From: Hydractinia symbiolongicarpus
Taxonomy: Eukaryota
NCBI RefSeq assembly: GCF_029227915.1
Contig: NC_079879.1
Span: 12,132,720 to 12,196,719, forward strand
DNA length: 64,000 nucleotides
Reading direction: 5' to 3'
Shown here: positions 10,359 through 34,423 of the stretch, in pieces
Numbering within the stretch: position 1 is the stretch's first letter
Layout of the letters: each line of letters begins with the position of its first letter
Notes under the pieces: model-generated
What the model was told of the DNA's origin: nothing
Databases searched by the model: none
Seen by the model: only the letters and a program-made list of their open reading frames with translations
Program-made: the position numbers and the translations under genes

Positions 10359-10481
10359 ATGTTTTCAAACTGTGTTGTGACACTGGACCTAGGAATCACA
10401 GCTTCACTTAAAGAGAAACAACATCTGCGTCAGATTGTTACCAAAAATGGTGGTGTTATTAGTTATATTGTTACAAAAAAA
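10359..10481 (+). CDS. PARP4: PARP4 exon 1 (start codon; BRCT N-terminus)
   Basis: MFSNCVVTLDLGITASLKEKQHLRQIVTKNGGVISYIVTKK, followed by a gtaagt donor. It matches the start of human PARP4. Confidence 0.8.
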
Positions 10482-12702
10482 GTAAGTCTTAATAACATTT
10501 AATTTCTTTTGTGGAATGCTTGAACAGAAATAGCAATCAGGAGTCATTGCGACAATTTAAAATTTTGTCCAACTTGTGTAAATATTATCAGCTTTTAATT
10601 ATACTACCTATATACTTGTTTCTTCATTTAAAAACAGTACAGCTACAGCTTGAATGTTATAGAATTATAATTAAAGCAAAACACGGTATTTTCTCTAACG
10701 GATTTTGAATGTGCTCATTGACAGGCCTGACTTTGAAATATAATTGGCCTTGAATGTACCTTTATATGCAATATATATATGAATGACCTCATGTTTTCAG
10801 AAAGAAGCATCATGCATCTTTTGTTTATATGACGACTTAATCATTTTTAATCAAATTAAATATTGTCGTAACACCCTCCTCTCTTGTTATTTTCATTATT
10901 TTTATTGTTGTTATCCCGACCATTCATTCTCGATAAAATTCTTTTATTTCGCCGACCAACCGACCATAAGCTTCTATCGACTTTGCCTGTAGAACAACTA
11001 ATTAAGTTGGAGTTGCCTTATAACACTTTTAACCATCAAACTGTGAAAAAAAAAATTTAACAGAGCCTTGGCATGCCATTTTTAAAAATAATTGCTGTAT
11101 TTTGCTGGTCAAAAAATTTTGTCATTTGAGGGGAGTGGGGCTTTTACAAAGTGTTTGTTTACCACATTTTATTGTTACGGTTAGAATGGACGAGTTGCAA
11201 ATGTTTACCAAGTTCCTATTATGCACATGCATTCTGACAGGCAAAAACAGAAGTACCACATCAGACAAATTGGCTATTATATAGTTTTCTATTTAAAGAT
11301 TTTAAGGAAGAAAAAATTAAAAAGGACATCTATTCTTTCCGTAAAAATTGACTGCTACAAGTAAATCCTAACAATATATTTATGAAATAATAACAATCAT
11401 GGCTTTACATTGTGTACTTTGGGGTATACATGATAAGGGAAAGATGGCTACCCCAAATAGTTCTTGCCTAATTGTTCTGCAAAAATTATTTAACAAGTTT
11501 AAACATACTCAAACCCAAAACAGCCACTGGGGACTTAAAATATCGTCCAGCCTCTGATGTGGCTGTCTCAAACAGGTTTTTTCGTTTTAGTCTTCGCCAC
11601 AACTGATGTTTGGGACATTTGTTTTCTGTTTCTGAATAGAAAATAAATTGTCGCCTCCACAGGCATTATCCATATGGGAAAGTGAATAGTGTTTGTTTGT
11701 CAAATTAGGCAGGTAGTTGTCTTATAGAGTAGCAAATGACCATAAATCACTTAACCTGGACCAAAATGTGGTTATCTTATACAGGTGGTCATTGTAGCGG
11801 GTTTTACTGCATATAGATAGTATATTTTATCATAAAAACTATACCAAAAAGCCTTTTACATTTTTATTATGTCTTCATCAACTGTCAAACAAATTTTGCA
11901 TAAACTCTGAAGTCCCAATGCTTATTAGTTATTATTTATTCTGAAATTAATATTTTAAAAAAAAATCGAAAGATTGGGTAATTACTGGATTGTACACTCC
12001 AGGAGCTCTAAGTAGCTGTAATTGCATAAAATTTTCCAGAAGAGCTGGCCCAGACTCAATGATTTTCAGTTATCTTTGTTTCCTTACCTTATACGGTTTG
12101 CATTTAGTTTGACCCCACTAACTGTGGGTTGGAAGATCTAATGTCATTTAATGTGAGCCATCGATTTGATCAGTGTTACTGTCAACATTTGCGATTTTTG
12201 CACCTCGGCCAATCCAAGATTAGCTATCATTTTATTTGTAAAAATATGTCTGCAATCTTATGGCAATAAAAATCTCTGAATCTTTATCACATGTTTTTAA
12301 CCTCGTAAGCGATCATTTTCCGTTGCTTATCCAATTTTACTATTTGTGAACAATAATTTTTTATTTATGATGTTGATAGTGTGCTCTTCTAAACATTTTC
12401 GAAAAGTGACAGTTACTTCAATAGCTGCATCCAACCCTGCTCTGGATTGTAATCCATCCATTTTTTTTGAATAATATTATTTTTGTTTAAACAGTATTAT
12501 GTACAACTTTGAAATTATAAAGAAACATGAGGAAAACCTGATGGACAAATATCAATCACTGTTGTACAGTCTACTAACGTACACACATTAATTTTCAAAG
12601 AAATCTAAAACAATCATTTCCGCAAAAGACCAATTAATTGAATCTCATTATATTTAAACGAAAAAGGTGGAAATGTTCTCTTTAACCACTGTTTAAAATA
12701 TC

Positions 12703-12765
12703 TATATAATAATACGCTAAGTGTGTCTGTCTGTGTGTCTGTGACAGGCAAAGTGGATGTCTTCA
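12703..12765 (+). repeat. Terminal segment of an interspersed repeat family (ctatataataatacgctaa-(gtct)n-gcaaagtggatgt)
   Basis: Near-identical to 59783-59840, with 1-3 differences. Confidence 0.55.
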
Positions 12766-12839
12766 TTTTCCTTTGATGTTGCCGAAAAATGCATGTCTAA
12801 AAATTTTTTAATTTAATTTTTTCAATTTTTTAAACCTTT

Positions 12840-13035
12840 ATATCTTATTAATCATTTATCAAGCACGTGATTACATACATTTTCTTGATCAGCGCTTTAA
12901 ACTCCGCACAATAGAGGCAACGTAAAAACAAGGTTTTTTGCAGATGGGTTGCTGACGTCATCAAAATTCATATGACGCTTATTTTTCAATTTTATCCTGC
13001 CTCAGTGGATTTTTCCACGGGCTTTATCGACTAGT
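12840..13035 (-). repeat. Copy 2 of the same repeat, in inverted orientation
   Basis: Reverse complement aligns with 6518-6700. It ends in gactagt. Confidence 0.6.
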
Positions 13036-13276
13036 CTATGTATTAATAAGTTAGAAATACTGCATTACATCAAGGTACCTTTTTTAATTAGTGCTGTGTA
13101 ATATAGGTAACTACAGTACTTTCACAACAGTTTTACCCATCTTAAATTACTTTATCGGTACACAGCCCATCAACATGTTGTGTTTAAGGAGAAGCAGGTC
13201 TTTATAATGACTTTTTCTTACTTTTTTTGAATGAAATACAATTTTTTTATAATTCACAATTGACTTAAATGTTTAG

Positions 13277-13478
13277 ACAACTCATGTGATTGTGTCAACA
13301 GCAGAATATGCAAAATCCTCATTTCGATGTGAACGAGCAAGAACATACAACATCCCTGTGATTACTTCTGACTTTCTTAAAAATTGTTTGCTATCACAAA
13401 AGCTGGTTGATTTGGAGCCATATTTAGTCTTCAGAAAGTTGGAGAACAATGAATTGAAGACAGGAAAGATTGTAATTG
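13277..13478 (+). CDS. PARP4: PARP4 exon 2 (BRCT)
   Basis: TTHVIVSTAEYAKSSFRCERARTYNIPVITSDFLKNCLLSQKLVDLEPYLVFRKLENNELKTGKIVI. tttag acceptor and gtatgt donor. Confidence 0.85.
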
Positions 13479-13815
13479 GTATGTTGTGTGTTACACAATT
13501 TTTAGATTTTTTTTTTGTTTATCCTCGCAATGAGGCTCAGTATCGCATGTCAGCCAGAAGCGGAGACCACACAGTACAATTTGAGTTGAGCGGGATTCCA
13601 AGTATTTTATTTTTTACAAAGAAAGTTATTGCAAAACAAAAGATACAGGTTGCTAAGCCTACGGGAGCGCAATACCTTTCTATTTTTAAACTGCTCATCT
13701 ATTTTAATATTTGAGTTTGTAATATTCTTTAACCACTACTTTTAGTAATAAAATAAAAGTATTAAAAGTATTAAAATAAAAAATCTGTAGTAACAAAATT
13801 ATTTTGTTTTTTCAG

Positions 13816-13870
13816 AACATTGTGATGACACAAATATGAGAAAAAGAGAGGTTGATCTTACCAGTCTGAA
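13816..13870 (+). CDS. PARP4: PARP4 exon 3
   Basis: EHCDDTNMRKREVDLTSLK. The phase joins exons 2 and 4. Confidence 0.6.
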
Positions 13871-14385
13871 GTTAGTATTTTATGTCATTTTTTTCTATTA
13901 ATTTCTTCAAATTTTAAAACAGAAAGTAAACTTGTTTGTATTTTTGTGACAGTCAAAATGAAATTTTTTAAAATAGTTTCATGTGATTACGTTAAAAAAG
14001 CTTTTGGAATACCAATTCATTTTAGGATATGTTGTAAATTTCTTTCCGATTTTCCCACCGCAGCCTTTTATATGTAATAGACTGCCTTGTCAAAATTGGT
14101 GTACATTTTTATCCATGTAGTTCATTTGTTGTTTGCTATAAAAACCTTAAATATGTTATTTGAAAAACTAAAAAGAAAAATAATTAAACTTGGTAGAGTT
14201 AATAGTTACTTTTTTATGAAGCAACTAAAATGACAAACTGTGACAGAAAACAAGTTTAAAATGTTGGTTTTTTGTCTTAAAATTTTTATTATTTTTTATC
14301 AATTTGCAACATGAATCAATTAAAACAGTTTTAACTTAGTTTTATGTGTATTTTTTAAAACCTTAAAACTGTATTTTGTATTTAG

Positions 14386-14458
14386 AATCTGGTCAGACAA
14401 GGTAGATGGACCTTGGAAGAATACTCCTTTTGAAGTTCCAAAATATGTGCTTTTAAAG
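14386..14458 (+). CDS. PARP4: PARP4 exon 4
   Basis: IWSDKVDGPWKNTPFEVPKYVLLK. tttag acceptor and gtaact donor. Confidence 0.65.
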
Positions 14459-14546
14459 GTAACTTTGAGAGTCTAAACTTTACAGTAACTTTATATGTTT
14501 TATTTCAAAGATAGCTCTGTTACTGTTAACATGTGATTTTACTTAG

Positions 14547-14666
14547 GAATCTCCGAAACAGGAGGAAACCTCTTTTCATTTATTCGAGTTGCATGTGCAA
14601 GTTGATGAACAAAACAATAAGAAGTACAGAGTATGGCATCAATATGGAGGTCATTTGTATTGCAAG
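14547..14666 (+). CDS. PARP4: PARP4 exon 5
   Basis: ESPKQEETSFHLFELHVQVDEQNNKKYRVWHQYGGHLYCK. gttagt donor. Confidence 0.65.
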
Positions 14667-15483
14667 GTTAGTTGTTACGATTTGTTTACCTGCACCAAAC
14701 TGCTATAAATGTGTTAATAACACAGCCGATCCAACATTATAGACTTTTCGTCCGCCTTAAGGTGGGACAGATAATCTTGCATTATCACTTTTATTTTAAA
14801 GCAAAACAGCTTTTATCTTAGAAATTATTATAAATCAGCTTAAAAAAGGACAATGAAAAAAAGTACAGTATTATGACTATAGACAATCATTGTATGAGAG
14901 CTGAAAGATTAGGGAAAAAAATCTTGCAGCAAACTCTTGTTACTTTAAGCTGTATAGATTATACGCAACGAGAAATGGTTGGTGAAAACAAAAATAAAAA
15001 GAAAGAATAAGCCTGTCTCTCTGACACATTAAAACCACTAATGTGAAAGCAAGCCTAAACTATGACTTTCGACAATTTCTTTTGATGTTTGAAACTTTGT
15101 AAAAAGCTCATACTTAACTAATTGTGTCCATTCAAGTCACCCCTTGCCTCCTGTCCTTTTTTAAAATAGAGGGAACCACTTAGTATGTTTATTTTCAGAT
15201 TCAAATACTGTGGTAAGGGAGCAACAGAAAAGTAAAACAGTATTTTTGCTAAAAAACAATGAATGTATCACAGTCTACAAAATATTGTATAAGCAACACA
15301 GAATCTGCATTCTCAAGTGACACTTAACTTTGCAGTGTCTTATTCTTATAAATAGATGACGATAGTCTTTCTTGCATTCTTGTTTGCAGAAATGCCTTGA
15401 TCCTATGTGCACAGATGAATAATGTTAAAAATTTATTAATAATTAATTCTGTTCTATCAAACTATTAATTTTTTTTAATGTAG

Positions 15484-15636
15484 AATCCTCTTGATTTTAA
15501 ATCTGAGTATCGTGTGACATCAACTGGAAGAGAAAGCGAAGAAGTATTGGGTTTATGGAGTGATTTATTTGCTGAGAATACTTTTCAAACAAATCTATCA
15601 AAATCATTGATGATTGGGACAGAATATTTGTATATG
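15484..15636 (+). CDS. PARP4: PARP4 exon 6
   Basis: NPLDFKSEYRVTSTGRESEEVLGLWSDLFAENTFQTNLSKSLMIGTEYLYM. Confidence 0.7.
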
Positions 15637-15740
15637 GTAAACCTTGTTTATCTTTGCTTAAAATTGGTGTCTTTTATGTGTAGTAAGATGCTGCCATAAT
15701 ATTTTTGATCTAACATGGTATATATTTTACCTCCTTTCAG

Positions 15741-16046
15741 TGGCCAGATCGCACACTTGAAAGTATAAATGAGCTTTCCTCAGAGGTTTCTGCACTAATT
15801 GATACATTTTGGACAGAAGCTCATGGTAAACTCAATGAAGTTTTAACAAATCCAATTAAATCATACAATATGGCTGATGTAACGAAAGCTGAAGGGATTT
15901 TACTACGTCTTAAAGATTGTGTTGTGAATAAACAGCCAGTTGAAGATTTAAGTGATGAATTTTATGATGTCATTCAACATCACCATAATCTAAGGATCAA
16001 TATTGAGAACATGAAAATAATTTCTCAAAAGTCAGATTTATGTCAG
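15741..16046 (+). CDS. PARP4: PARP4 exon 7 (PARP regulatory helical region)
   Basis: WPDRTLESINELSSEVSALIDTFWTEAHGKLNEVLTNPIKSYNMADVTKAEGILLRLKDCVVNKQPVEDLSDEFYDVIQHHHNLRINIENMKIISQKSDLCQ. Confidence 0.85.
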
Positions 16047-16137
16047 GTATATGATCTGTATTTCTTGTATCTTGTCTAAGTTTCGTGTTCAAGTTTTTAC
16101 ATGTATTTTTTGTTCACAAATCATTTTTTTTAATAAG

Positions 16138-16292
16138 CTTATTAAAGATTTTGCAAGCATCAATGAATCTACTAATTGGCAAACTAAAACCAGCGCTGAA
16201 GCAAAGTATACAGCTTTAGGCTGCCATATCGAAAAACTGCATGGTGAAAGATACAAGGACGTGCATAAAGATATTATAAATGCTATTAATAG
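16138..16292 (+). CDS. PARP4: PARP4 exon 8
   Basis: LIKDFASINESTNWQTKTSAEAKYTALGCHIEKLHGERYKDVHKDIINAINR, compared with human LIRDM...AKYRALRCKIEH. Confidence 0.8.
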
Positions 16293-16468
16293 GTATTATA
16301 TATACTTCTAATATTTTTTTTACTGAAAGAGGTCGTTAGTAAAAACTGCAGCCGATTGCAATCACACTTCAACAAAACTGTTCCGAAAAATTATTTGTTT
16401 CTCTGGTGTTGTGCAGATATGGAAAAAAACTTGCATTACAATTATAATGATTATTTCTTTTTACACAG

Positions 16469-16568
16469 TAAAGAAGAGATTGAAGTTTTAAATATCTTCG
16501 AGTTGGATCGCTGCTCAGAACCGAAATTGTGTGGTGACAAGTCAGGACCATTTTTCCATGCTTCTGAG
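16469..16568 (+). CDS. PARP4: PARP4 exon 9 (start of the catalytic domain)
   Basis: KEEIEVLNIFELDRCSEPKLCGDKSGPFFHASE. Confidence 0.7.
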
Positions 16569-16948
16569 GTACTACTTTGAATTTTTTTTTTTCTAAAAGC
16601 GTGGAAAACAGACGTTAGACGTTAAGCCAAACAGATGTCATTGATAATGAATTTGATGTTGATACAGTAAAAGGAACTTAATCTAGATAAAATTCTATAT
16701 ATAAATTATTAGAAAAGCTATTTTAAACAAATTATCTGGTATTTGGGAAAACATTGTTAGTATCTTGCCGACAAGGATAATATTGGTTTTCATGTAAATA
16801 CCTAACCAACTTGTCCACCTTCTTATAGGGAATTAACAGCTAACTTAATTAACGAATGTGCAAATGTTATAATTATCAAATATGCAAGTCTTTGTTTATT
16901 TGCTAATATTTCATTTAACTTATGGATTTGTTTTCTTTTTCCTTTTAG

Positions 16949-16977
16949 CCAAAAAATTTTGTTGGAATATTGTCAAG
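16949..16977 (+). CDS. PARP4: PARP4 exon 10 (micro-exon)
   Basis: PKNFVGILS, compared with human PVQNIVGILCRGL. The phase fits. Confidence 0.65.
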
Positions 16978-17151
16978 GTAAAGGAAAATTGTAAATACCA
17001 TCAAATTTAGATTTCAACAGTGTTGTATACAATTCAAAAATTTAGTTAAGAAAAGAAGAAAATTTTCGCGTTTGAAATTTTAGAAATTCAGAGTTATTGT
17101 TTAATTGGTTATAGCTATTAGTTGATAACCATTGTTTTGATATTACTTTAG

Positions 17152-17250
17152 AGGATTACTATTACCAAAAATTGTGGTGAATGATTATGGTGGAAGCCGT
17201 ACAGATGCTGGAATGCTTGGAAATGGAATATATTTCGCAACCTGTCCAAC
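17152..17250 (+). CDS. PARP4: PARP4 exon 11 (catalytic core)
   Basis: RGLLLPKIVVNDYGGSRTDAGMLGNGIYFATCP, compared with human GLLLPKVVEDRGVQRTDVGNLGSGIYFSD. Confidence 0.85.
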
Positions 17251-17543
17251 GTAAAGCTTTTACTTTCTATAATAAAGTACATTTAAGTGCATACAGGCTC
17301 ATACAGATAGATACATACAAAAAATGTAACACGACATTAAAAGGAATCATATTGTTATAAAAAATACTGGAGCGACAAACCAGATAGTTTTTAGAATAAA
17401 TTACATGTTTAATTTAAATTTATTTGAATTGGCAAATGTATTTTGACACACAAGGCGTTAAATAAATGCTCCTTTACGAGCAAAAATTGTCATTCAGGCC
17501 CTCAATCCTCTTAAATATTTAAAAATCTCTTTTTTAAATGTAG

Positions 17544-17628
17544 AACATGCATAAAGTATTCAAAACCATCTTTAATAACTGGTAGCCGATTTATGTTAGC
17601 ATGTCAGTTGTCATTAGGCAAAACAAAG
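17544..17628 (+). CDS. PARP4: PARP4 exon 12
   Basis: TCIKYSKPSLITGSRFMLACQLSLGKTK, compared with human SIKYSHPGETDGTRLLLICDVALGK. Confidence 0.8.
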
Positions 17629-18338
17629 GTAATTTTTGTTATTTCTTTACTCTTGTTTGTTACTATCTCCTTTACCTCGAGGGAACAAATTCTTGTAAAA
17701 ATTAAGTCGTTAAGAATTTAAGTAACACCTGATTATAACTGAGAAAAGGACTTTAAATTATTTAATACCCATAATTTATTCTACATAAATACTTAACTTG
17801 CTTTTAAATCAAGTTTTCTGGTGAAAGAAACCTAACCTAGCTTGGTATTTATTTTTAAATTTTGTATAGAAACCAAATTATTGCATATAAAGTCAGTTAA
17901 AGTAACAACAAGGACCTAAAAATCTTGTCAGAGATATTAATTACCTTCTTAAGGGGCTATTTAGTACAGCTTGTTGTTTCTCTTTCTTATAAAAACAACC
18001 TTTCTATTTTACTGTTATTCATTATATTTTGCAGACTATTTAAGACTGTATTATTTATTACTGGATTGTCAATATTTTTGCAATAAAGGTTATATGCTAT
18101 GATGGAGAATAACATCAATGACAGAGATCTTACTTAAGCCGTTTTGAAGACCTTTTAATAAACTTTTTCAGTATAAATAGACATGTACATTTAAAAACAT
18201 TCAAGGCATTGCGAGAATTATTCTCAAAATCCATGAATTTTTATGAGATGTGACTCTCAAAAAATTTGCATATTTTCGTGAAGGAAGTGCTCTGAAATAT
18301 TTATCCCTTAAGGAATTAAAAGCATTTGTTTTGTTTAG

Positions 18339-18437
18339 GATTATTATGAGTTCAATCAGAGTTTAGTTGGTCCTCCAAATGGTTTTGACAGCACACATGG
18401 TGTTAAAAGTACAAGTAAAGTGCCTTCCGAATTCAAG
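18339..18437 (+). CDS. PARP4: PARP4 exon 13
   Basis: DYYEFNQSLVGPPNGFDSTHGVKSTSKVPSEFK, compared with human EAPPGYDSVHGVSQTASVTTDFE. Confidence 0.8.
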
Positions 18438-19744
18438 GTATATTGTATTATCTATTGTCTTTTGACTTTTCATAGTAAATAATACAGATGTCAAAATTAT
18501 TTACAACCTAGTTGGAATAACGTAAACCTAAAAATTTAAATTCCCCAAATCACCTTACCAATTTAACTTTATTTTTGTGTGTATGAATTTATGAAACTTT
18601 TTGCTATCAAATTCATGGTTTTTGTAAATTTTATTTATTTGCTCATAGTAAATTTTATTGCTCAAAGTAAACTGTTAATACGCTGCAAAAAGAATTTAAA
18701 GTTAGGTTTCGATGTAACCTCCAGGTTATTAAAGCTGTGGCATGGAAGTAATCATTGTTAGCAATATTGAAAGTGTCAAGCATTTTTGTTCAATTAATTA
18801 ACAGAAGCTGTAAAAGCTAAAAGCAAAAATACCCTGATAAACTGATTTTGATGTTGTACAATGAAATAAAAGCCAGGTCAATATGCGAAAGTGTTTTTCT
18901 TGAGTCACAAAGGAAGAAAGCGCATGTTTAATTTCATACATTTGGAATTAGAGTTTAAAAGTTTTGTAAGTTCACAAAACAAAATCTAATCATTATTTAT
19001 GTTAAACGAAACAAAGAGATATTTCTTGTGTGCTATGAAAATCTTTTGTTTATTGGCTTATGTTTTGTGCCACTACTTTAATCAGGCTATCGCCACGTAC
19101 AAAGCCTTCATAAAGCCAAAACCAATCAAATTATTCGATTGTTGTGTCAATCGGGTAAAAGCATACAGTGTAAATAAAAGTGCTTTGTTTCCTCTAAATG
19201 TTTTTCTTTTAATAAAATTGTTGGATATTTCATGTTGAAAATACATGCTTTGGAGCGAGTGGGACTATTTGCAGCAAGCTATTATCTTTTTTAAATTATT
19301 TTTTTATTCCAGAAATCTATGAAAATTGATAAGTATAGCTAAAGAACTAAAAACAAAGTTAAAATCCATATTTTTCATATAAATATCTCACAAAAATAAG
19401 GTTGTGTCAGTTTTATTCATTTGCATGCTTGATCATTAATAACAAATTTAAAAAATCTTTATACATATTCTGTATTTCTTAAAATTAAAATTAAATTTCA
19501 TCCACCCATACTAATACTAAAATTTAAAAATTAATTTCGCCCAATATTTTTTGAATATAAGAAGTCACACTTCCATGTTACGTCAATACTACTATAAAAT
19601 AAATCACTGTAAATACGAAATCCTTGTTGAAGGGCTTTTTTGGCCTCAGGCTAGGGATTGTACAGTGCCAGTTTAAAACCAATCAGTATCCCATTGCTGA
19701 ATTTCTTAAGTAATAATACAGTTGAAAATTTCTTTGTTATATAG

Positions 19745-19788
19745 GATGATGAATATTGTATTTATGATGTTTCGAGGTTGCAAATTAC
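19745..19788 (+). CDS. PARP4: PARP4 exon 14
   Basis: DDEYCIYDVSRLQI, compared with human DDEFVVYKTNQVKM. Confidence 0.75.
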
Positions 19789-19894
19789 GTAAGTCTAACA
19801 TTTGATTTATCGGGATTTAATGCATACACCACTCATGTGAATGTACCTCTAAAAATAATTAAATATATTACTTTAAAATATATGTTTTCTTTAG

Positions 19895-20004
19895 GCACAT
19901 TGTTGAATTTAAAACGCCACAGGACAACCTTCTTGTACACAATTTTAATCCTGAATTATCTGAAGACGAAGGTATTGAATCTGATGTGGAACTGTCGGAG
20001 GAAG
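19895..20004 (+). CDS. PARP4: PARP4 exon 15
   Basis: THIVEFKTPQDNLLVHNFNPELSEDEGIESDVELSEE. Confidence 0.7.
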
Positions 20005-20334
20005 GTGAGTAATTAAAACATTTAAAACATGCTTGGTGTAGCGTACAAGTAGAATGTAATGCTCTTGTCTTTTCTCTTTTAACCAAAGGTTATTTGTGGA
20101 AATATCGCATGTAATTTTTATGGTATTTAATCAGCTAATGTAAATGATTGAGCAAAAAGCCTAATCAGTTTAGCCTTAGTGGCGTTTTAGTCATTTACTA
20201 GTTAAAAGAACATAGGAGTGGTCTGTCACTTTTGTTGACGATACCAATGATCCATGGATACAAAAGGGCTTAAAATGTTATCATGAAAATGTATATGATT
20301 ATGTGCTTTCGCCAAACCATTGAAGATATATTAA

Positions 20335-20470
20335 GGTTGTTGATGAATCCATCCGTCTGTTACAAAACAGATGAGTTGACCCAGCTTAAGAAAATTTGCC
20401 CCGCTTTGATCCCAGATTGTCTCTAGTTACTAATATGGTAAAAGATAACCGATTTCACCCATCTGTTTGT
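20335..20470. repeat. Short MITE-like interspersed repeat with palindromic ends
   Basis: The core gttgacccagctt...gaaaatttgcc...ctagttact is also found at 60510-60600. It has palindromic termini, ctgttacaaaacagatg and catctgtttgtaa. Confidence 0.45.
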
Positions 20471-23480: not shown

Positions 23481-23641
23481 GTAAGATAAACAAATCTATT
23501 AGGATTTATAACTTTTCTCCTTGTATTACGTAACACGGTTTTACTGAGGTTTTTATGTAGTCAAAATGGATGCATCTGAGATCAAAATTACGTACTGTAT
23601 TTTTAAAACTAAACACTCAAATTCATGATTGGTCTTTGCAG

Positions 23642-23806: not shown

Positions 23807-23894
23807 GTAAGATTTAGCTGGCGTTGTGTTTTATTTCAGATTTGGTAATGAACCTAAAAGAAGACCAAGCAATAATCTTTATACATATTTTTTA

Positions 23895-23938
23895 GGATGA
23901 GGTTACTACTGTTAATGTTGATGATGTTAACTCACATG
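23895..23938 (+). CDS. PARP4: PARP4 exon 20
   Basis: DEVTTVNVDDVNSH. The phase joins exons 19 and 21. Confidence 0.55.
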
Positions 23939-24046
23939 GGTACATATTTATTTTCTTCTTATTGTGAGACAATAATTAATATTCTCTTCCCTATTCCACC
24001 ACTTACTCCATTCTTAACCTATAATCCCCTACTTGAATTCCCTTAA

Positions 24047-24778
24047 CCCTATTCGGTCCGGGGTTTTTCGAACATACTATGACCGGGGGCAATAACTTTT
24101 CATAGGGTTGTTCAATTGAATCAAACTTGGCACACTTATAGTACGTCGTAAAAGGAACAAAATGGCAGCCGTATATTTTTGTTTACGTCAGCACATTTTC
24201 TCTGACGTCATCAGAAGCTTGAAATTTGTTAAAAATGCCACTATCTGCTTAAAATTTAATTACTTTTGTTCCACAGCGAATTTTTGCATTCTGTTTGAAG
24301 GTTCTGAAAGCTGAATAAAAGTTATTTAACATATTTTCCGGTTTTTACTTGGATCGCATAAAAAAGTGCTAAAAATCGCCCGAAAATCCGTTTTTTCCCC
24401 GATTTTCGGGTAAAATCCGACAAACTCGAGAAATCGGATTAATCATGTGTCCGAATTAAGCACAATGATTCTTCTTAATAAAACAAAGTTGTGTTGCAAG
24501 TTTGAAGTTCTAAGATTAATTTTAACAGGAGTTATTAAATTTTGCCCATTATAAGGATTTCATAGAGATTTTGAGGGGTAGTTTCGAGTAATGGCCAATA
24601 TCAAAGCCTCTGAAAGGTATGGGACCTAAAAATTTGGCATGTAGGTGTCTAATAGATAAATATCGAAACTCAGTTTCATAGCCATATAACATAGCAATAA
24701 GGAGTTAATAAAGAAAAACCGTCAGGGAGGGGGGGGGGGGGGGGGGGGCGGAATCCGCCCCCCCCGGACCGAATACGG
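24047..24778. mobile_element. piggyBac-like MITE flanked by TTAA, with 17-bp TIRs and an internal G27 homopolymer
   Basis: Left end is ttaa|CCCTATTCGGTCCGGGG (24047-24063). Right end is CCCCGGACCGAATACGG|ttaa (24762-24778). The TIRs differ by one mismatch. TTAA is present on both flanks. The poly-G run is at 24728-24754. The internal sequence is non-coding. The element lies in the PARP4 intron between exons 20 and 21. Confidence 0.65.
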
Positions 24779-25187
24779 TTAATAAATGTCCTTTTCAAGT
24801 GAATGTGCATGTTAGTAAAATTAATTTTAATACGGACTTTTTATGCGTGCTAATTGTTAATCACGTGTTCAGTCTGCAATGCGAAAAATTAAATTTATGT
24901 AAAAAGATTTTTAATGAATTTACTTTGAAAATGTTAATTATTTTGAATAGGACATTTACTTTAATTTCTTTACAAACTTTTAAATATTTCGAGATCTCAA
25001 TTCTTTAGTACATAAATGCTTTCGCCATGTAAACAGCTAGCTCTCTTTTTCGCAAAAAGGCACCTATACTTCTAAAATTGGTAAAGTCTTCAAGTATGCA
25101 ACTTTTGCATTAATATCTTTTATTTTTGTATTCAAACTTATTGCCGACTTTATTTCCTCACTATGTGTTTCTTTGAATGTGATTTAG

Positions 25188-25269
25188 AGACTTCTCACTC
25201 CAGTTATCCGTAGATATGCCATATGACATAAGAAATATCTTCTCGCCAACGCATTCAGTTAAAATTAAG
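25188..25269 (+). CDS. PARP4: PARP4 exon 21
   Basis: DFSLQLSVDMPYDIRNIFSPTHSVKIK, compared with human FSLTMSIEMPYVIEFIFSDTHELK. Confidence 0.8.
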
Positions 25270-25353
25270 GTATTTTTTTGATTTTTTGGTAAAGATAATC
25301 TTTTTCGTTTAATGTTTTGGGCAAAAATACTTCTTTTTCTGTTACTTTGTTAG

Positions 25354-25488
25354 AAAACTGCTACAAAATCTGTTGTTCATCTTATGGACGAACCACTTGG
25401 TGACTCATTTCAATTGTTAATTGATCTTGCTGAAATTCACGTCCCTAGAATGATTGCTCAACGCCATCCAACTGATTCGAACAAACAA
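25354..25488 (+). CDS. PARP4: PARP4 exon 22
   Basis: KTATKSVVHLMDEPLGDSFQLLIDLAEIHVPRMIAQRHPTDSNKQ. Confidence 0.75.
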
Positions 25489-25610
25489 GTATGTCTTGTT
25501 TTCTTCTTTATGTAATGAAACTCTAACAAGGTTTATGGTGCTCTATTTGTCCTAAACTTATGCTTTTGTGATTGCATTTTCATCTGTGTTAAATAGTGAG
25601 ACTTTTTTAG

Positions 25611-25703
25611 GCCTGCATGTTGACTTTCTTCCCAGAATTTGAGAATGTGTCAACAGATGTGTTGGATGTGGTGTTTCTAATTGACTTATCTAACTCAATG
25701 AAG
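25611..25703 (+). CDS. PARP4: PARP4 exon 23 (start of vWA, with the MIDAS DxSxS motif)
   Basis: ACMLTFFPEFENVSTDVLDVVFLIDLSNSMK, compared with human ACMLVFQPDL...VIICLDCSSSME. Confidence 0.85.
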
Positions 25704-26458
25704 GTAATATAGGAATAAAATTTCATGTATACTTTTGACACTGTTTTCATTTTTCTTTTTTTTAGGATTCTTTTTTTTTACCTGTGGCAACATAATGCTT
25801 TTTCTTGAACAATTTTAAATTTACCAACAAAAGAAAGTGGGCTTAAAGTTCGATCCATTATGTTAACTATGGCAGGAATTTTATTAAGACATCAGTATTG
25901 GAAAGTGACGACTCCACTTATTACCCAAGTCAAAATCAATCATTGTATTAATAGTTAGATTGTGACTGTTGTTAGTGGTTTGAGTTAAAACTGTGACAGA
26001 GTTTTGTGCTAGGTTTACATCTATAAATACATTGCTAAATATTTTTATATGGTTATGTTATTTCATGTTCATATACTCCATAATTTTATTACTTCTATTA
26101 AAAACATTTTGAAAACAAAACAAAAATTATGCTAGCAAGATCTGAACTTTGGAGATTGACGACTCTACTTATTATCCCAGTCACATAAGGGCAGATTGTT
26201 CTCCACCAATTAACTCCTTGGCAGAAGACGGAATTGCATTCTATGATGTATATATTCTTTGATGAATATATTCTTTAAAGGAACAAACCCTCCAGATCTT
26301 AAAACTAAGACTTAACTGGTTGAGTTTATCATTGTGCTAGCACTTTTGCACTTTTCTTTTTTCTTTGTAAAAAATATGAACGAATCATTATAACATTTTT
26401 TGATAATTTTGTAAATTTTGCATTTTTCAAAGAAGAATTAACACTTTGTTATTTCTAG

Positions 26459-26549
26459 GGTCTTGAGAAAGAACTGCAAAAACTTGTTTATCTAACTTTT
26501 ACTAATCTACCAGAAGAAACCAATTTTAATATCATCAAGTTTGGTGAAA
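26459..26549 (+). CDS. PARP4: PARP4 exon 24 (vWA)
   Basis: GLEKELQKLVYLTFTNLPEETNFNIIKFGE, compared with human GVTFLQAKQIALHALSLVGEKQKVNIIQFG. Confidence 0.8.
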
Positions 26550-26624
26550 GTATGCTGGATTTTTTCATCCATGTAACACTCAAAGAAAACAGGGTTACTG
26601 ACATTTTTTAATTATTATTTTTAG

Positions 26625-26698
26625 AACAGCAAGAGTTGTTTTTAGCGCCTAAATCCAAAAATCAAAAAACACACAAGTCTGTATTATCTTTCTTAAAG
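26625..26698 (+). CDS. PARP4: PARP4 exon 25 (vWA)
   Basis: KQQELFLAPKSKNQKTHKSVLSFLK. Confidence 0.65.
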
Positions 26699-26825
26699 GT
26701 TAGTACTTTTTATTTTAACATATTCAACACTAATTCAAAGATTAAAAATTACAATGTACAAGTTGGGAAGCGTACAAAAAAGGCAAACGTTTGCCGCCCT
26801 AATTTTAAAACAATGTATTACTTAG

Positions 26826-27013
26826 ATTTTGAAACCATCACTTGGAGCAACACACCTTTGGAAGCCCTTATCTATTCTGCAGTATTTAGCGTCAGCAGAG
26901 TCACCTAAGAATGTGTTTTTGTTTTCTGATGGACATATATCAGATGAGGTAACAACACTAGCATCAATACAAAACAACAACAAAAACATCAGAATGTTTA
27001 CGTTTGGAATGAG
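26826..27013 (+). CDS. PARP4: PARP4 exon 26 (vWA)
   Basis: ILKPSLGATHLWKPLSILQYLASAESPKNVFLFSDGHISDEVTTLASIQNNNKNIRMFTFGM, compared with human MGNTDFWKTL...NILLVSDGH. Confidence 0.8.
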
Positions 27014-27091
27014 GTAAACAATTGATATTTTTTATTAATGTTCGGGTTACTACTGAGGAAATTATGTTTCTCATTAACATTACTCTTTTAG

Positions 27092-27191
27092 TTCAACAGC
27101 TAACAAACATGTGTTAAGGAGAATTGCAGACCTTGGAAGTGGTTGGTTTGAATATTTTGATAAAAGTTTGAAATCCAAATGGGAGAAAAAA
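27092..27191 (+). CDS. PARP4: PARP4 exon 27 (vWA)
   Basis: SSTANKHVLRRIADLGSGWFEYFDKSLKSKWEKK, compared with human GSTANRHVLRILSQCGAGVFEYFNAKSKHSWRKQ. Confidence 0.85.
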
Positions 27192-27304
27192 GTATGTGAA
27201 TTAATAAATGTTTAAAATGGAAATTTTCTCAGCTCCATTTAATAACCACACAAATTCAAACCATGTCAACGAGTTTTATAATGCTTATGTATTACATTTT
27301 GTAG

Positions 27305-27400
27305 GTGAAAATGCAAATCGAGAAGTCTCAGCAACCTGTTCTGACAGATGTTAAAGTTCATTGGGTACAAAATGATTATGATGCTCCAAAACATTTACAG
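27305..27400 (+). CDS. PARP4: PARP4 exon 28
   Basis: VKMQIEKSQQPVLTDVKVHWVQNDYDAPKHLQ. Confidence 0.7.
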
Positions 27401-27521
27401 GTGTGAAAAACAGTTTTTAGTTTGTGTAAATGAATTTGTTTCAAATAGTTCTAAACTTCTAAAAAGAGATTCAATAAGGTTTTAGATGTTATTTAAAATT
27501 TAAAATCCATTTCTTCTACAG

Positions 27522-27596
27522 GCACCAAATGAAATTATGGCATTGTTTAATGGCTCACGATTGGTAGTGTATGGCTTTGTCCCACATTGCACTATG
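27522..27596 (+). CDS. PARP4: PARP4 exon 29
   Basis: APNEIMALFNGSRLVVYGFVPHCTM, compared with human APAQVPSLFLNDRLLVYGFIPHCTQ. Confidence 0.85.
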
Positions 27597-27736
27597 GTAT
27601 TTAAATTTCTGTCCTGAACTTTTGTAAAATTGTTAGTTATATTATTACATTTTAAATGTGTTGTTTTCTATTTAATCAATAAATTATTAGTTTGACCTAG
27701 TTAATTTGTTTGTTAATGTTTACTTTTATTGTTTAG

Positions 27737-27817
27737 GCAACATTGACAGCTTCTGTCAATGGAAAGCATATGTCCACACTTGTTTCTACATCAGAACTAA
27801 GTACATTAACCGGTTTG
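27737..27817 (+). CDS. PARP4: PARP4 exon 30
   Basis: ATLTASVNGKHMSTLVSTSELSTLTGL, compared with human ATLCALIQEKEFRTMVSTTELQKTTG. Confidence 0.8.
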
Positions 27818-28188
27818 GTACGGTTTTTAACTTTTATCTATTACGACATTTTAAGTAAAACATTGTTTCTTAAATAACTTGGTAGCAACTGTTAGCCTTG
27901 TTTCACCTGGTGGCCTTATGGCAGATTTTTGCCCATAGTGTAAAAAGTTGTGGATTCAATTCCCAACCAAGTCATGCCAGAGACTATAAAAGTGTGAATT
28001 TATCAAACTGCTAGCGCATAAAAATAGAATTGTTTTCTTAAGCAGTTGTCTAATTAAGTGACTGTTGTGCTTGTACGCCTTCTGTAGCTCGAATGGAGTT
28101 AAATTGATAACAGTACCGTTAAGAAATAAAGAGGCGTGGGTAAACAATAATAAAAATTATAATCATAATAGTGAGACAATTTATTTAG

Positions 28189-28269
28189 TCTTTGCATCGC
28201 CTTGCTGCCAAAGCAATTATCGAAGATTGGGAAAACGGAATGTTGAGTGAGTATGAAATAGAACATGAG
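28189..28269 (+). CDS. PARP4: PARP4 exon 31
   Basis: SLHRLAAKAIIEDWENGMLSEYEIEHE, compared with human IHKLAARALIRDYEDGILHENETSHE. Confidence 0.85.
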
Positions 28270-28748
28270 GTGTGTAATATTTTTTTTGGTTTTCTTCTTG
28301 TGTAATAATGTCAGCTGATTTGGTATATGAATACAAGGAATTTTTACTTGCTCCTTTTATTTTTTAAATATAAAAATGGCATATTTTTCTAAATTATAAC
28401 CGTTTTTTTAAATTCTAGAGTCTAATTTTATTTTTAAATTTGTCCCAATGTTTTTCAAGAAATCTTCATTCTCTAGTTTTTTAGGACAAAATTTTCGGTT
28501 GGTAAATTTAGATATTGCCTTATTTTTTAATCAAATTTATTGTCTAATTGGAAAAAACCTGAAATGCTGTGAAAAATGCATAAATGAAATGTTTGTGTTT
28601 AGTTGAATAATACAATTATTAGTCATGAACAAGAAAACTTGTTATAGGCTATATCTCGAGAGCTACAGTTATCACCAATAGGCCCGTCCTCCCAAATAAA
28701 ATGATTTTTTTATTTTATTCTGATTATATTGTCCGTAATTTTTTTCAG

Positions 28749-28847
28749 ATGATTAAACAGAAAATGAAAAAGCAAATTATTGATATGAGTATTGAATTCT
28801 CAATTGTAACAAAATTTACAAGTTTTGTAGCCATCGAAGAAAGAGAG
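28749..28847 (+). CDS. PARP4: PARP4 exon 32
   Basis: MIKQKMKKQIIDMSIEFSIVTKFTSFVAIEERE, compared with human MKKQTLKSLIIKLSKENSLITQFTSFVAVEKRDE. Confidence 0.85.
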
Positions 28848-28950
28848 GTAAATATTATTATTGTTATTATTATTCACAACAGCATTATGCTCTAGATAAA
28901 GTTTTGAATGAGGAAAGGAAGGTTGTGTCTTGTTACAAACGGTTTTTCAG

Positions 28951-29055
28951 AGTGGTGAAAGCAAAGATGACACAGCACCAACAATAGATGAACTTGTTGC
29001 GATGGAAAACATTGATATTTTATCCTACATGGCTTTTGAAGATAAGTCAAAAATT
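28951..29055 (+). CDS. PARP4: PARP4 exon 33
   Basis: SGESKDDTAPTIDELVAMENIDILSYMAFEDKSKI, compared with human PKVSELIAKEDVDFLPYMSW. gtgagt donor. Confidence 0.75.
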
Positions 29056-29349
29056 GTGAGTCTCTACATTAATAATACCTGTATTCTGTCTGTCCTCTAA
29101 AAGAAGTTCAGGCTAACTGTGCACGAAATCTTCAACCTACAAATAACAAATAGCAATTATAATTTTACCAACTTTAACACTTCCATATAGTAGTTTCATT
29201 TTTATGGATAACCGATTTAAGTTTTTCTCCGCCTTGACATGCCGGCGAAGGAACCACCAGAGTACGTTGACAAAGGCCCTTTTAGATTAAAAAGGGGGGT
29301 GTTGAGTTTTGAAGGTCTCTTCTCGACCTTTTTCTCTTCTTAATTTGTA

Positions 29350-32185
29350 TTTATAAAGAGGGCGGATCTAGGGTTAGGCAGCCTAGGCAATTGCTTAAGC
29401 CTAATTTTGTGGCCGTAGAAAAAACATTCTTTAGATAGAATAATTCATAAAAAACAGAATTATTTTGTAAATTTGTTTTTGGCATCCCGCTCATTACGAC
29501 ATCATGCACTGCGGCGTTTTATCATTTTTTTTATCATTGATATTTTACTCAAAAACAAACCCGGGGCGATCTTAGGCAAAAATGTCGATTCGCCTAAAAC
29601 GTCCGCGGGTTTTGAAGTTTCGAATGAATGAAAATCACAGATGGAAGAAAAAACGCCTAAAAAGTCCGCGGGGTTTCAAGTTCCAATGAATGAAATATTG
29701 AAATGGGAAGAAAAACCGCCTAAAACGTCCGTGGGTTTTTAAGTTTAAACGCCTAAAACGACCACGGGTATGGTTACATGGACGACAAGTGGATACTTCT
29801 TTTTCAACATGGGTTAGCTGTGTCCGAAGCACCTCAAGTGGCTAGAATAAATCAAAGCAATTGTATGCTAGCTAAGTTAAATGAAGAAGTTTTGAGTTTG
29901 GAAACCCTTTCAGATATTAAAAGGATTGGAAATGCTGGAGGGAAGTATTGTTGCCACGTGCGCCATGTTGTTGTCTTAAACCAAACCTTCATCCTGCCTC
30001 TTCAAAAGATAATAAATACATTACTTGAAGTAAGTAATACTTCATATATTTTAGTTTTTACTGCTGCTGGATTTAAGGCACTTTTGTGTCAAGAACTATT
30101 CTCAAAAGTGGTAAATCACCAGATGTTCTTACAAAACTTGTGATTTAAAAAATCTCTTTCTTATCAAAACAAAAGGTTTTAACTTGACCTCGATCAAATG
30201 GATTGTTTGTTTTTTAAAGCCCAATGCTAACTGAGGCAATTTATGTAAACACTGTCTTGGAGGTCAAAAAATGTTTGGAGGTGTATGTTCAGTTTGGTAT
30301 AGAGTATTGCTAAGCTGCATGTGCATTAGTTGGAATTTTGTTAGTTTTTTGTTTATTGTCTTAAGGTCAAAGGCTTCGTGTAGCCGTTTATGCAACTGTG
30401 TATCTTTGTGTCCGTGTGGAAAAGGAATAATTCTTGTAAGATAGCTAAGGGACAGCTCTTTCATAAACGCAAAAGTTTAAGCTAAATGTAAATAGGTCTG
30501 TAGGTCCCCTTTCCCTGGGGATTTACAGATAGGTAATATATTCGAATGTTGTCAGTCCCTGAAATCATACGCACTCGGATATGTGCTCCTGTTAAGCAGG
30601 TAGACGACAACAAGTTCAAAATACTTTCTACAATATGAGATATACTTAAACGTCAAAGGATTCTACCTCGTCCCAATGCAAATTTACGTTTAGCATATAC
30701 TTTTCGATTGTGAGTGTCCCTAAGAACTTTAACTTTGTTGGAACTTTTAAACAGTAGATTTTATATACAACATTCTACTGCGCATTTTAAAATATTTTAA
30801 GAACACAAGGAGATCCTTAACGTTCCCACGCTGCTTTTAATTGTGATAAAATTGCTAAAAACAAAAGAATGAAACAATACCTAATTTAAGAATAGTCCAA
30901 GTTTGTTGTATAATATTTCTTCTTTTTTGTTGAGCAATACAACATATATAATTTTGTTTTAGGAATAGATATATTGATGTCAGCCATGATTAATATTCTT
31001 CTGACAATGAAAATCACCATCAATTAAAGAACACAGGAGATTCATTATGAATCCTTATAATATTGGAAAACTGTAAACAATGGATATATATTTATATATC
31101 AAATGGATGGGTATGATATCAAAATAACTTGTACTGATAGAAATGATTTTCACGTAAAATGATACAGATCGAAACAAGAATTGCATGTTAAAGAACGTTC
31201 TGCTACAAACCAATGAAAATGTCATGTTAACTTATGCATATGAGTAGAATGTGTATATATATATGTTGCTTTTTATATGAGAATCTTCAAAATTGACCTA
31301 GTTACTAAAACTTTTTTAAAAATTTCGACTCTTACTTTTAAACATAGTTGACAGGGGCATGTGAGGGTAAATAATATGCAGACATGTTAAATGTTTTGAT
31401 GTTATTTTTCTTGATTCCAACTCTTTTCTGGCTTAATAAAGTACTCAACTTTTGTGGAAATTTTTTAACAATAAAATTAATGCTTAATAGAAATTGGTGC
31501 GAAACTACACCAGTAACCTTAATATTAAAAAATATTAACTTCATAAAGGGGTAACTACTATATACTTTTTGTAGTCGTTTATTATACGTTGCTATCTTAC
31601 ACATGCTTTTGTTTTTGCATTTGCAGGTTGTTAGCACAGGCTGTAATTTTCCAAACAATAATTCTACGTTGCATTGCTGTTGACTATCTATTCCTAAAAT
31701 TGTCTTGTAATGTAATTTTTTGTTGTATTATTAGCTATTAGACTTATTGCATATTTTGAAATAAAGTAACTCCCCAAATTTGTAACTTGGCGATTACTTG
31801 TACTCGTATTAAATGCATAAAACGTAAAAAAGATGCTTAGATGATACCAGTGTGGTATGTCATTCAAAGGAACTATGGCAACGCTAACCCTGTTTCGAGT
31901 CTAATTTACCAAACGGAGTTTTCCATCCGCATGTTTTAGCGAGGATAACAGTGTTAAACTACGGAGGTTACTTTTATTTATTGGGCTATAAAGACACTTT
32001 CGTTTCTAATCTAGGAAGAATTTTTAATAACTAAAAACCTCACTTTTGGAACGATTTTAGCTCCTTTTATAATAAAAACACAAAACGGCCGCTTCACCTT
32101 GTACAACACCACAACCCTTGATATTACTTTGCAAAAAAATCTGTCCAGTTTTGCCTAACCAGAAAAAAATCCTAGATCCGCTCCT
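29350..32185. mobile_element. Possible TE-like insertion bounded by an imperfect short inverted repeat; contains the 60-bp tandem repeat and a 121-aa orphan ORF (29778-30143, +)
   Basis: gcggatctagggttaggca at about 29353 is the reverse complement of tgcctaacc...cctagatccgc at about 32155-32185, as an 11-mer plus an 8-mer. The ORF sequence is MDDKWILLFQHGLAVSEAPQVARINQSN...CCHVRHVVVLNQTFILPLQKIINTLLE. This call is weak. Confidence 0.25.
29575..29770. repeat. Tandem repeat with a unit of about 58-60 bp and roughly 3.5 copies
   Basis: The unit cgcctaaaacgtccgcgggttttgaagtt-cgaatgaatgaaa...ggaagaaaaaa repeats at about 29575, 29640, 29700 and 29748. Confidence 0.7.
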
Positions 32186-33039: not shown

Positions 33040-33140
33040 AAAAATGCGAAATACGGAAATTTCCTATTAAAACATATTGATTTCGTATTTTAAAATACGC
33101 GTATTTTCAAAAATACAAATACGTATTTTCGTATTTTTAA
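33040..33140. repeat. Palindromic low-complexity tract built from aaatacg / cgtattt motifs
   Basis: gcgaaatacg...cgtattttaaaatacgcgtattttcaaaaatacaaatacgtattttcgtatttttaaaaatac. Confidence 0.6.
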
Positions 33141-33521
33141 AAATACACAAGGCGACTCCAACTTAATTAGTTGTTCTACGGGCGAAGTTGATAGTAGCTT
33201 ACGGTTGGTCGGCTGGCGAAATGAAAATAATTTTATCTATAATGTATGGCCGGAACAACAACCAAAAAGATAACAACTATGTATTTAGGCATCACACACG
33301 CAGTTTAGGTAACCTCACCAACTATAATATGCCTCGCACATGTACATATGAACTATAGTTTAATTTCAAGGATAAGTGTCAACGTGGACATTTGTGGTCA
33401 GTTGTGGTCTGTGCTAACTGTAAATGTGGTCTGTGTTGACTGTTTTTTATCTTGAATTATTGTATAAATATTCTTAAATAAGATCAAATCCAGATTTGTA
33501 AGAGACATCTTTTTTTTATAG

Positions 33522-33631
33522 GTCACAAAGTTTCATGGAGTCATAAGTTTTTATTCCCAAGACCAGAGTAATAAAAGCAATGAGAAAAACGGAAGTGGAA
33601 GTGATGAAAACCTTTCACCGTACAAGTCTAG
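33522..33631 (+). CDS. PARP4: Candidate downstream PARP4 exon in the low-complexity acidic/Ser-rich linker
   Basis: VTKFHGVISFYSQDQSNKSNEKNGSGSDENLSPYKSR. tatag acceptor and gtgagg donor. The phase is compatible with exon 33. There is no recognisable homology. Confidence 0.35.
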
Positions 33632-34027
33632 GTGAGGCTTATGCTTATGCTACTGCTGCATGATACAAAAAAATCTAGCCACACTATGAGTTTCTCATGA
33701 AAAATTTAAGAATAGCTTCTGTCATTTTAAAATTAGTAAATTTACCATGTGTAGTTCAAATCTCTTAATCTTTTAACGCAAAAAGCAATGTACCTTAGAG
33801 TAATAAACTGAATACAACTTTTGATCTTGAACCACACTTTATAACATCAGTTTCGATGGAAGCCTTGTTAGGAGTAAACAATATTAGTTGCAAGTTAACA
33901 AAATTATATCTCTTTTGTTGTTGTTATTCTTACAATGGTGTCTGAAATTCCACTACATCCCTTTTTTAAGCATCAAGCAAAATGCATTCGCTATGTAAAC
34001 TTGATATCAATGACTTGTTGTTTATAG

Positions 34028-34172
34028 TAGTGTTAGTATTCCTCCGATATCTCCAGAGCTCAAAGAAATGGTTTTGAATCAACAAACTGGAAGTGCAGTT
34101 GATGAAGTTGGTGATAGTGTTAATGATGATATGAGTACAATGAAGCCAGCAAAAGTTACTCATGGATACAGG
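34028..34172 (+). CDS. PARP4: Candidate downstream PARP4 exon
   Basis: SSVSIPPISPELKEMVLNQQTGSAVDEVGDSVNDDMSTMKPAKVTHGYR. The phase is compatible with the previous candidate. gtatgt donor. Confidence 0.35.
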
Positions 34173-34389
34173 GTATGTATTTTGGCACACAATGTTTTAT
34201 TTGGTATAGTGGCAAATGCATCCTATGGAAATCGATCACAATCATCTTGAAATGTTTAGTACATTCTTGGACGAAAAGATTGTAAATAATGAAGAAGAAA
34301 ACTGCAGAAATGAAACCACTAGTTTTTCTAAAATAATGTCAGTCCAACAGAGTTTTTATAATTTATTAATTTAACATTTTTTCACTTAG

Positions 34390-34423
34390 AGTCTTGAAGA
34401 TGTCAGTCAACCATCAATGAAGG
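34390..34423 (+). CDS. PARP4: Weak candidate micro-exon just before the tandem array
   Basis: SLEDVSQPSMK. ag acceptor and gtaggc donor. It is short and unsupported. Confidence 0.2.

Follow-up and report, generated by a model that had tools for sequence, protein, structure and literature searches.

A probably complete PARP4 gene in Hydractinia symbiolongicarpus carries a tandem array of cassette exons upstream of a remote MINT homologue

Human PARP4 (VPARP; PDB 9bw6, 9bw7, 11jf and 8swy) runs from an N-terminal BRCT domain to a C-terminal helical domain that interacts with the major vault protein (MVP). This C-terminal domain, termed MINT or MVP-interaction domain (MVPID), spans residues 1562 or 1570 to 1724 (PMC10450202, PMC12280208), and its binding to MVP has been assayed by SEC or ITC (PMC12280208); the protein is also reported to contain a disordered region of more than 100 amino acids (aa) (PMC10450202). 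Here we describe a PARP4 gene in a 64,000-nucleotide (nt) stretch of the hydrozoan Hydractinia symbiolongicarpus (contig NC_079879.1, positions 12,132,720 to 12,196,719), hereafter the window. The predicted domain order of its product is that of the human protein. Within the gene lies an array of near-identical units, for which the titin PEVK and nebulin super-repeat exon blocks provide a parallel: one protein repeat per symmetrical exon, tandem duplication of exon plus intron, and variable inclusion. Titin and nebulin are structural muscle proteins, whereas the Hydractinia units, 1.33 kb long and 91–99% identical, lie in a vault-associated enzyme family.

We conclude that the plus strand very probably carries one complete gene for PARP4 (vault PARP, PARP clade 5) from 10359 to 58359, including the array and a C-terminal homologue of MINT. 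The locus is an ordinary gene, already present in public annotation with its array exons and C terminus included.

Gene identity and exon chain

The window is AT-rich (29–35% GC), and its plus strand, to which all positions refer unless stated otherwise, contains numerous short open stretches in which BRCT, PARP, VIT and vWA motifs are clear. A first homologue search with a 472-aa concatenate yielded only fragments of up to 818 aa, and the species' own protein was not among the matches; the search returned only proteins of about query length, and short queries can miss long multi-domain proteins. A search with a 1100-aa draft recovered the RefSeq entry "protein mono-ADP-ribosyltransferase PARP4-like isoform X2" of H. 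symbiolongicarpus (XP_057306524.1, 1732 aa) at 100% identity. Nearly all named relatives in this search were PARP4 or poly(ADP-ribose) polymerase 4; those from amphioxus, molluscs, echinoderms, corals and vertebrates showed 41–50% identity over ~87% of the query. The assignment as a PARP4 ortholog, made in a first-pass annotation from the letters of the window, is thus borne out by RefSeq identity, by the domains and by PARP4 relatives across Metazoa.

Using a purpose-written spliced protein-to-genome aligner (affine gaps, GT–AG introns, all three phases), we placed XP_057306524.1 on the window with 1732 of 1732 residues identical, in 49 exons separated by 48 introns, all of them GT–AG. The RefSeq cluster comprises six isoforms (XP_057306523, XP_057306524 and XP_057306526 to XP_057306529), X1 to X6, with lengths of 1751, 1732, 1713, 1694, 1390 and 1371 aa, the long ones having 49–50 coding exons. 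X2 was aligned over its full length, and the other five were aligned as tails from aa 1181 onward; these tails map at 100%, except that of X5 (208/210), which needs a GC donor at 35830.

The coding sequence starts with the ATG at 10359. Exons 1–33 (10359–29055) total 3624 nt, encode aa 1–1208 exactly, end in phase 0 and align at 100% identity with GT–AG junctions throughout. Their positions are 10359–10481, 13277–13478, 13816–13870, 14386–14458, 14547–14666 and 15484–15636 (exons 1–6); 15741–16046, 16138–16292, 16469–16568, 16949–16977, 17152–17250 and 17544–17628 (exons 7–12); 18339–18437, 19745–19788, 19895–20004, 22760–22896, 23150–23234 and 23341–23480 (exons 13–18); 23642–23806, 23896–23939, 25188–25269, 25354–25488, 25611–25703 and 26459–26549 (exons 19–24); 26625–26698, 26826–27013, 27092–27191, 27305–27400 and 27522–27596 (exons 25–29); and 27737–27817, 28189–28269, 28749–28847 and 28951–29055 (exons 30–33). 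The first-pass chain of 33 exons and about 1208 aa, with every GT–AG junction in frame, therefore agrees with the record, in which each internal boundary reads AG...GT. Three further exons that it had offered as weak Ser/acidic-rich linker candidates (33522–34423) are RefSeq exons 34–36 (33522–33631, 34028–34172 and 34390–34423; aa 1209–1304), common to all six isoforms, so that its model corresponds to the first 36 exons of the RefSeq gene.

That annotation had proposed a spliced alignment of PARP4 proteins, which we ran with RefSeq, bird, coral and bivalve sequences and which gave the same exons. The bird, coral and bivalve PARP4 fragments align to a consistent chain at 15561–29059 with strong splice signals, and for the conserved exons they reproduce the boundaries without relying on RefSeq. 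It had also considered that the BRCT/PARP and VIT/vWA parts might belong to separate genes; a single 1732-aa protein aligns across both, residue for residue, and the two parts form one gene.

All four domains ascribed to the chain score above the Pfam gathering thresholds. The BRCT domain (aa 2–90; 10362–13423) matches BRCT_2 with 42.9 bits and BRCT with 31.8 bits, the PARP catalytic domain (aa 382–554; 16249–19913) scores 62.8 bits, VIT (aa 612–727; 22840–23707) 121 bits over aa 615–727 and vWA (aa 866–1014; 25665–27146) 66.7 bits against VWA_3. The regulatory helical domain, PARP_reg (HD; aa 280–358), scores 19.8 bits (E = 9e-4), short of the cut-off of 26.8, and a rodent PARP4 (P0113), with 16.5 bits, also falls below it. 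In a search of PDB, the catalytic domain matches human PARP4 with E = 5e-41 for isolated-domain chains and 1.4e-39 for the full-length chain, compared with only ~5e-6 for PARP2. In the alignment with human PARP4, the H-Y-E triad is found as H (FFHAS), Y (GIYFA) and E (DDEYCIY). As judged by these comparisons, the ADP-ribosyltransferase domain is nearer to PARP4 than to PARP1–3, with an intact triad. From N to C terminus, the protein would thus comprise BRCT, the PARP regulatory and catalytic domains, a VIT–vWA (ITIH-like) body, a Ser/acidic linker, an FG-like low-complexity tandem-repeat linker and a C-terminal helical domain.

The 4.5-kb intron 33 contains a 63-bp tandem repeat (29591–29745; 2.5 copies, 82% match). 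Near it lies a 128-aa open segment (29757–30140) with no Pfam match.

The C-terminal domain beyond the array

Downstream of the array, exons 46–49 (56568–56633, 56961–57091, 57358–57448 and 58031–58356; aa 1528–1732), followed by a TGA stop at 58357–58359, encode a helical domain of ~200 aa, whose MINT-homologous core spans aa 1578–1727 (57044–58341). The MVP-binding region had been reported as not found in this gene; it is indeed missing before the array, but its putative counterpart lies beyond it, at 56568–58356. The claim of a full domain-level model likewise held for the 33-exon chain and its four domains, but that model omits ~524 aa (aa 1209–1732 of X2).

Direct searches gave little for this part of the protein. 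A phmmer search of the C terminus against PDB returned no meaningful match, and a Pfam scan gave no match to the domain, with PF26156 and PF26166 not matched by rodent PARP4 either. A homologue search with the 205-aa C-terminal query returned no matches, its own source protein included. Weak but position-consistent matches to the extreme C termini of many PARP4 proteins led us to undertake profile tests.

The C-terminal ~160 aa of PARP4 are conserved from mammals to lamprey and the coral Acropora, and the vertebrate profile corresponds to residues 1557–1724 of human PARP4, the MVP-interaction domain seen in the vault cage (PDB 9bw6, 9bw7 and 11jf). A hidden Markov model of 47 vertebrate and Acropora C-terminal domains matches the Hydractinia C terminus with 13 bits (E = 3e-6, single target). 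Searching the last exon against 1.8 billion representatives, we obtained five short homologous fragments and two spurious low-complexity matches. The latter, P0189 and P0190, were the two best-scoring and were rejected, being long low-complexity repeat proteins (SDRRNRSVSQQTWS...) in which only residues 37–63 matched, repeatedly. Comparison by hhalign of a profile built from the five fragments plus Hydractinia with the vertebrate/coral profile gave a probability of 96.3% (E = 1.7e-9, 137 columns), and MAFFT independently lined up the same motifs: Q..NGSW with Q..DGFW, ILTIIICILLK with LIATLLVLQL, and FP....H.GYSFDEM with YPSIC.RLELG.DW. An AlphaFold2 model computed with that alignment is all-helical, with a predicted local distance difference test (pLDDT) score of 80 and a predicted template modelling (TM) score (pTM) of 0.82. 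When this model was compared by Foldseek with 350,542 PDB chains, the best match was 9bw6_B (probability 0.99, TM 0.60), which is PARP4 within the human vault cage, and the second match has a probability of 0.06.

Several observations count against this assignment. The homology is remote: vertebrate PARP4 proteins share ~41–43% identity with Hydractinia over the first ~1100 aa, whereas the C-terminal domain shares ~14% with human PARP4 and is detectable only with profiles. The Foldseek E value is 0.31, and the fold match is not independent, the alignment behind the model having held vertebrate MINT sequences; a single-sequence model of the C terminus reached a pLDDT of 36. The MVP contacts are partly kept in the remote alignment (K1618 corresponds to K, S1614 to C and R1689 to H), and among relatives of the last exon the R1689 position is R, K or H. 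A docking role would presuppose MVP or vaults in Hydractinia.

The coral Acropora muricata helps to connect the two ends of this comparison. Its PARP4-like protein (P0088, 1899 aa) likewise comes from a cnidarian and has at its C terminus a MINT-type domain, which plain phmmer from a mammalian sequence detects at E = 5e-13 and which bridges vertebrates and Hydractinia in the alignment. On sequence grounds we regard the Hydractinia C-terminal domain as a remote but real MINT homologue, and one that may bind MVP.

The tandem array and its exons

Repeat finding and blastn of one unit against the region reveal a tandem array at 34559–53738, ~19 kb long, with periods of ~1326 and ~551 bp and identities of 90–100% between units. 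Tandem Repeats Finder reported only a 63-bp repeat in the window, its period limit of 500 bp hiding the 1.33-kb array. The array opens with a partial and a diverged unit at its 5' edge, continues with eleven long units (1292–1331 bp) and four short units (550–552 bp; 50783–52986) and closes with a final long unit, in total about 13 units of ~1.33 kb and four of 551 bp; decayed remnants of 75–77% identity follow at 53860–54648, with pseudo-exons at ~53870 and ~54295 that contain in-frame stops. Rfam and transfer RNA scans of the window gave no matches, and the array is not an array of RNA genes.

Each unit consists of one small exon and its downstream intron. A long unit begins with a 57-nt element, bounded by a polypyrimidine-AG acceptor and a GT donor, whose 19 codons give GF(C/G)FG(N/T)(A/V)APQ(I/V)ASSGTVSK. 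Intact AG/GT copies start at 39754, 42370, 43698, 45029, 46360, 47690 and 50333. The first (39754–39810; FCFGNAAPQIASSGTVSK) was placed by the aligner in X1, X3, X5 and X6, and an exon of the same sequence, 42370–42426, fits X1 and X3 just as well. X2 uses five (43698–43754, 45029–45085, 46360–46416, 47690–47746 and 50333–50389), all of which have V at the A/V position. Three copies are impaired, with GG in place of the AG acceptor (37103–37159, 38429–38485 and 41046–41102), and two are diverged: that at 35774–35830, which only model X5 uses, has a GC donor, and that at 49021–49077 has a diverged 5' end without AG.

The four short units carry 96-nt exons (50744–50839, 51295–51390, 51845–51940 and 52397–52492). 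Their 39-nt 5' extension encodes FPMTSHM.GMGRFS and has a homologous counterpart in the intron of the long units, ~510 nt into that intron. Comparison of the two unit classes indicates that a deletion of ~780 bp joined this intron piece to the exon core, exonising it, and that the resulting 551-bp unit was then amplified. A cryptic 47-nt exon in the middle of the long-unit intron was considered and rejected; it would break the frame and is used by none of the RefSeq isoforms.

All array exons, whether 57 or 96 nt, are phase 1/phase 1, so that any subset can be included or skipped with the frame kept. In X2 they supply the repeat linker at aa ~1305–1527. In the RefSeq models, array exons are spliced into the transcripts, some of which end inside the array. 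X1–X4 differ only in the number of 57-nt cassette exons and hence by steps of 19 aa, whereas X5 and X6 run past the donor of the 42370 exon until a stop at 42512, so that 42370–42512 is their terminal coding exon, which excludes everything downstream, including the C-terminal domain. The array had been taken for a satellite in the 3' region of the gene. It does not behave as a non-coding satellite devoid of coding or splicing roles: it is intragenic, its open, AG/GT-flanked and phase-symmetric exons match annotated isoforms, and models X1–X4 take 7–10 in-frame cassette exons from it.

The hexamer AATAAA occurs ~563 nt after the exon start in every long unit (36337–50000). Its frequency is about that expected by chance in such AT-rich DNA, on which ground it was rejected as a polyadenylation signal. 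The 551-bp units are without it, their deletion beginning just upstream. It could serve truncated transcripts of the X5/X6 type.

Several points speak against the gene model as annotated. The RefSeq proteins are computational models from the same genome, and a 100% match to them is agreement with annotation rather than transcript evidence. It is ambiguous which copies in the array the models use: the copies at 45029, 46360 and 47690 are identical, as are those at 39754 and 42370, and such near-identical exons are indistinguishable by short reads, protein data or a spliced aligner. Across units, exon columns are 92.3% conserved and intron columns 95.1%, so that purifying selection on the array exons is not apparent.

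Three other readings were weighed. The first, which is unlikely and would affect copy number only, holds that the length and structure of the array are an assembly artefact, with repeats collapsed, expanded or mis-ordered. Unit identities of 91–99% are indeed hard for assemblers, but the units carry distinguishing substitutions, show an orderly gradient of similarity between neighbours and fall into two distinct classes, and the record is a 35-Mb chromosome-scale sequence.

According to the second, the array is an intronic repeat expansion whose exons are annotation artefacts, and the mRNA splices from 34423 directly to 56568, yielding a protein without the FG-like linker. The frame would be kept in such a transcript, exon 36 ending and exon 46 starting in phase 1. 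The conservation of exon columns at no more than the intron level fits this reading, as do the dead acceptors in three units. So does a related AT-rich contig in a public assembly (L001; ENA ERZ25072740, contig ctg114825, 32% GC), in which exons at 8643–10213 are homologous to the Hydractinia PARP4 C-terminal domain and share the motifs PYLDLH, NGSW, PWSHP and FPSL..GYSLDEM; within 8 kb upstream of these exons there is no large tandem array and no convincing repeat match. However, an open frame, AG/GT boundaries and a polypyrimidine tract are present together in 7 of 12 long-unit copies and in all four short-unit copies, the six RefSeq isoforms differ by exact 19-aa steps, and other PARP4 proteins carry species-specific low-complexity tandem repeats, some of them FG-rich, just upstream of MINT. 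We therefore consider it distinctly improbable that the array exons are artefacts.

That the gene in effect stops ahead of the array or within it, as in X5 and X6, with no vault-binding domain and with exons 46–49 belonging to another gene, is very hard to credit: the stop of X5 and X6 at 42512 and the recurrent AATAAA would suit it, but the only detectable relatives of the downstream exons are PARP4 C termini, their phase fits the upstream exons, a separate gene has no start codon or promoter evidence, and four of the six RefSeq isoforms join exons 46–49 to the exons upstream.

Linker repeats, possible function and neighbouring features

The Hydractinia array is the genomic form of a repeat linker, with one repeat per exon. 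The human PARP4 linker is unrelated to it in sequence, whereas that of Hydractinia consists of 19- and 32-aa repeats, each encoded by one exon of a homogenised array. The Acropora linker is Pro-rich and acidic, without the GFxFG..APQIASSGT repeat. Just upstream of MINT, vertebrate PARP4 linkers hold lineage-specific low-complexity tandem repeats, several of them FG/AP-rich: PPPPPGGTHL occurs five times in hamster (P0113), a repeat of ~37 aa in shark (P0100), and GFSFG-containing repeats in a skink (P0136) and in the coelacanth Latimeria (P0134, aa ~1360–1470). In blastp, the Latimeria linker matches the Hydractinia repeat weakly (E = 9e-6, composition correction off), which may reflect shared repeat character or mere low complexity. 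FG-type repeats at the same position in coelacanth, shark and skink hint that repeat character, rather than sequence, may be a conserved feature of PARP4.

The array would have arisen from an older repeat exon that was recently duplicated in tandem and homogenised. This is suggested by the unit identity matrix, in which neighbours are most alike, by exon columns being no better conserved than introns, and by decayed copies at both edges. Since the exon columns do not exceed the intron columns, the similarity of the units points to recent duplication or homogenisation, not to selection on the exon alone, and identities of 91–99% indicate that the expansion is very recent. As the L001 contig is without a comparable array in the 8 kb upstream of its C-terminal exons, the expansion looks lineage-specific.

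In terms of function, the C-terminal domain would dock the enzyme inside the vault particle, and the repeat region would act as a flexible tether, made longer or shorter by splicing or by copy number. Alternative inclusion of exons could produce such variation, as possibly could polymorphism in copy number. Transcripts of the X5/X6 type would yield PARP4 without vault targeting. Taken further, the array might be a genomic device that switches the enzyme between vault-bound and free states, tuning reach inside the vault through variable tether length and releasing read-through products without the docking domain; we regard this as a tentative proposal that is rather doubtful at present.

Two neighbouring features lie outside the gene. 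At 1395–3285, a short DNA-transposon-like element is bounded by 202-nt terminal inverted repeats (1395–1596 and 3084–3285; 94% complementary), and its fragmented open reading frames match the Pfam ZSWIM3 N-terminal and ZSWIM1/3 RNaseH-like (MULE-transposase-derived) domains; the copy is probably degenerate, with broken frames. On the minus strand, a separate gene at 61715–63577, running towards the window end, encodes a thrombospondin type-1 repeat (63362–63577) as well as a vWA domain divided between two or more exons (62396–62599 and 62735–63091).

The locus offers little discovery value, and the cassette-exon array is a modest curiosity. For the gene itself, the putative MVP-binding region is no lineage-specific loss but simply lies beyond the array, and what appeared to be a satellite consists of coding cassette exons. 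For the family, profile methods follow MINT as far as a hydrozoan, in support of an ancient link between PARP4 and the vault. The disordered linker of PARP4 has been rebuilt repeatedly from lineage-specific tandem repeats, and the Hydractinia locus shows such rebuilding at the stage of genomic unit amplification, with a deletion that turned intron sequence into exon.

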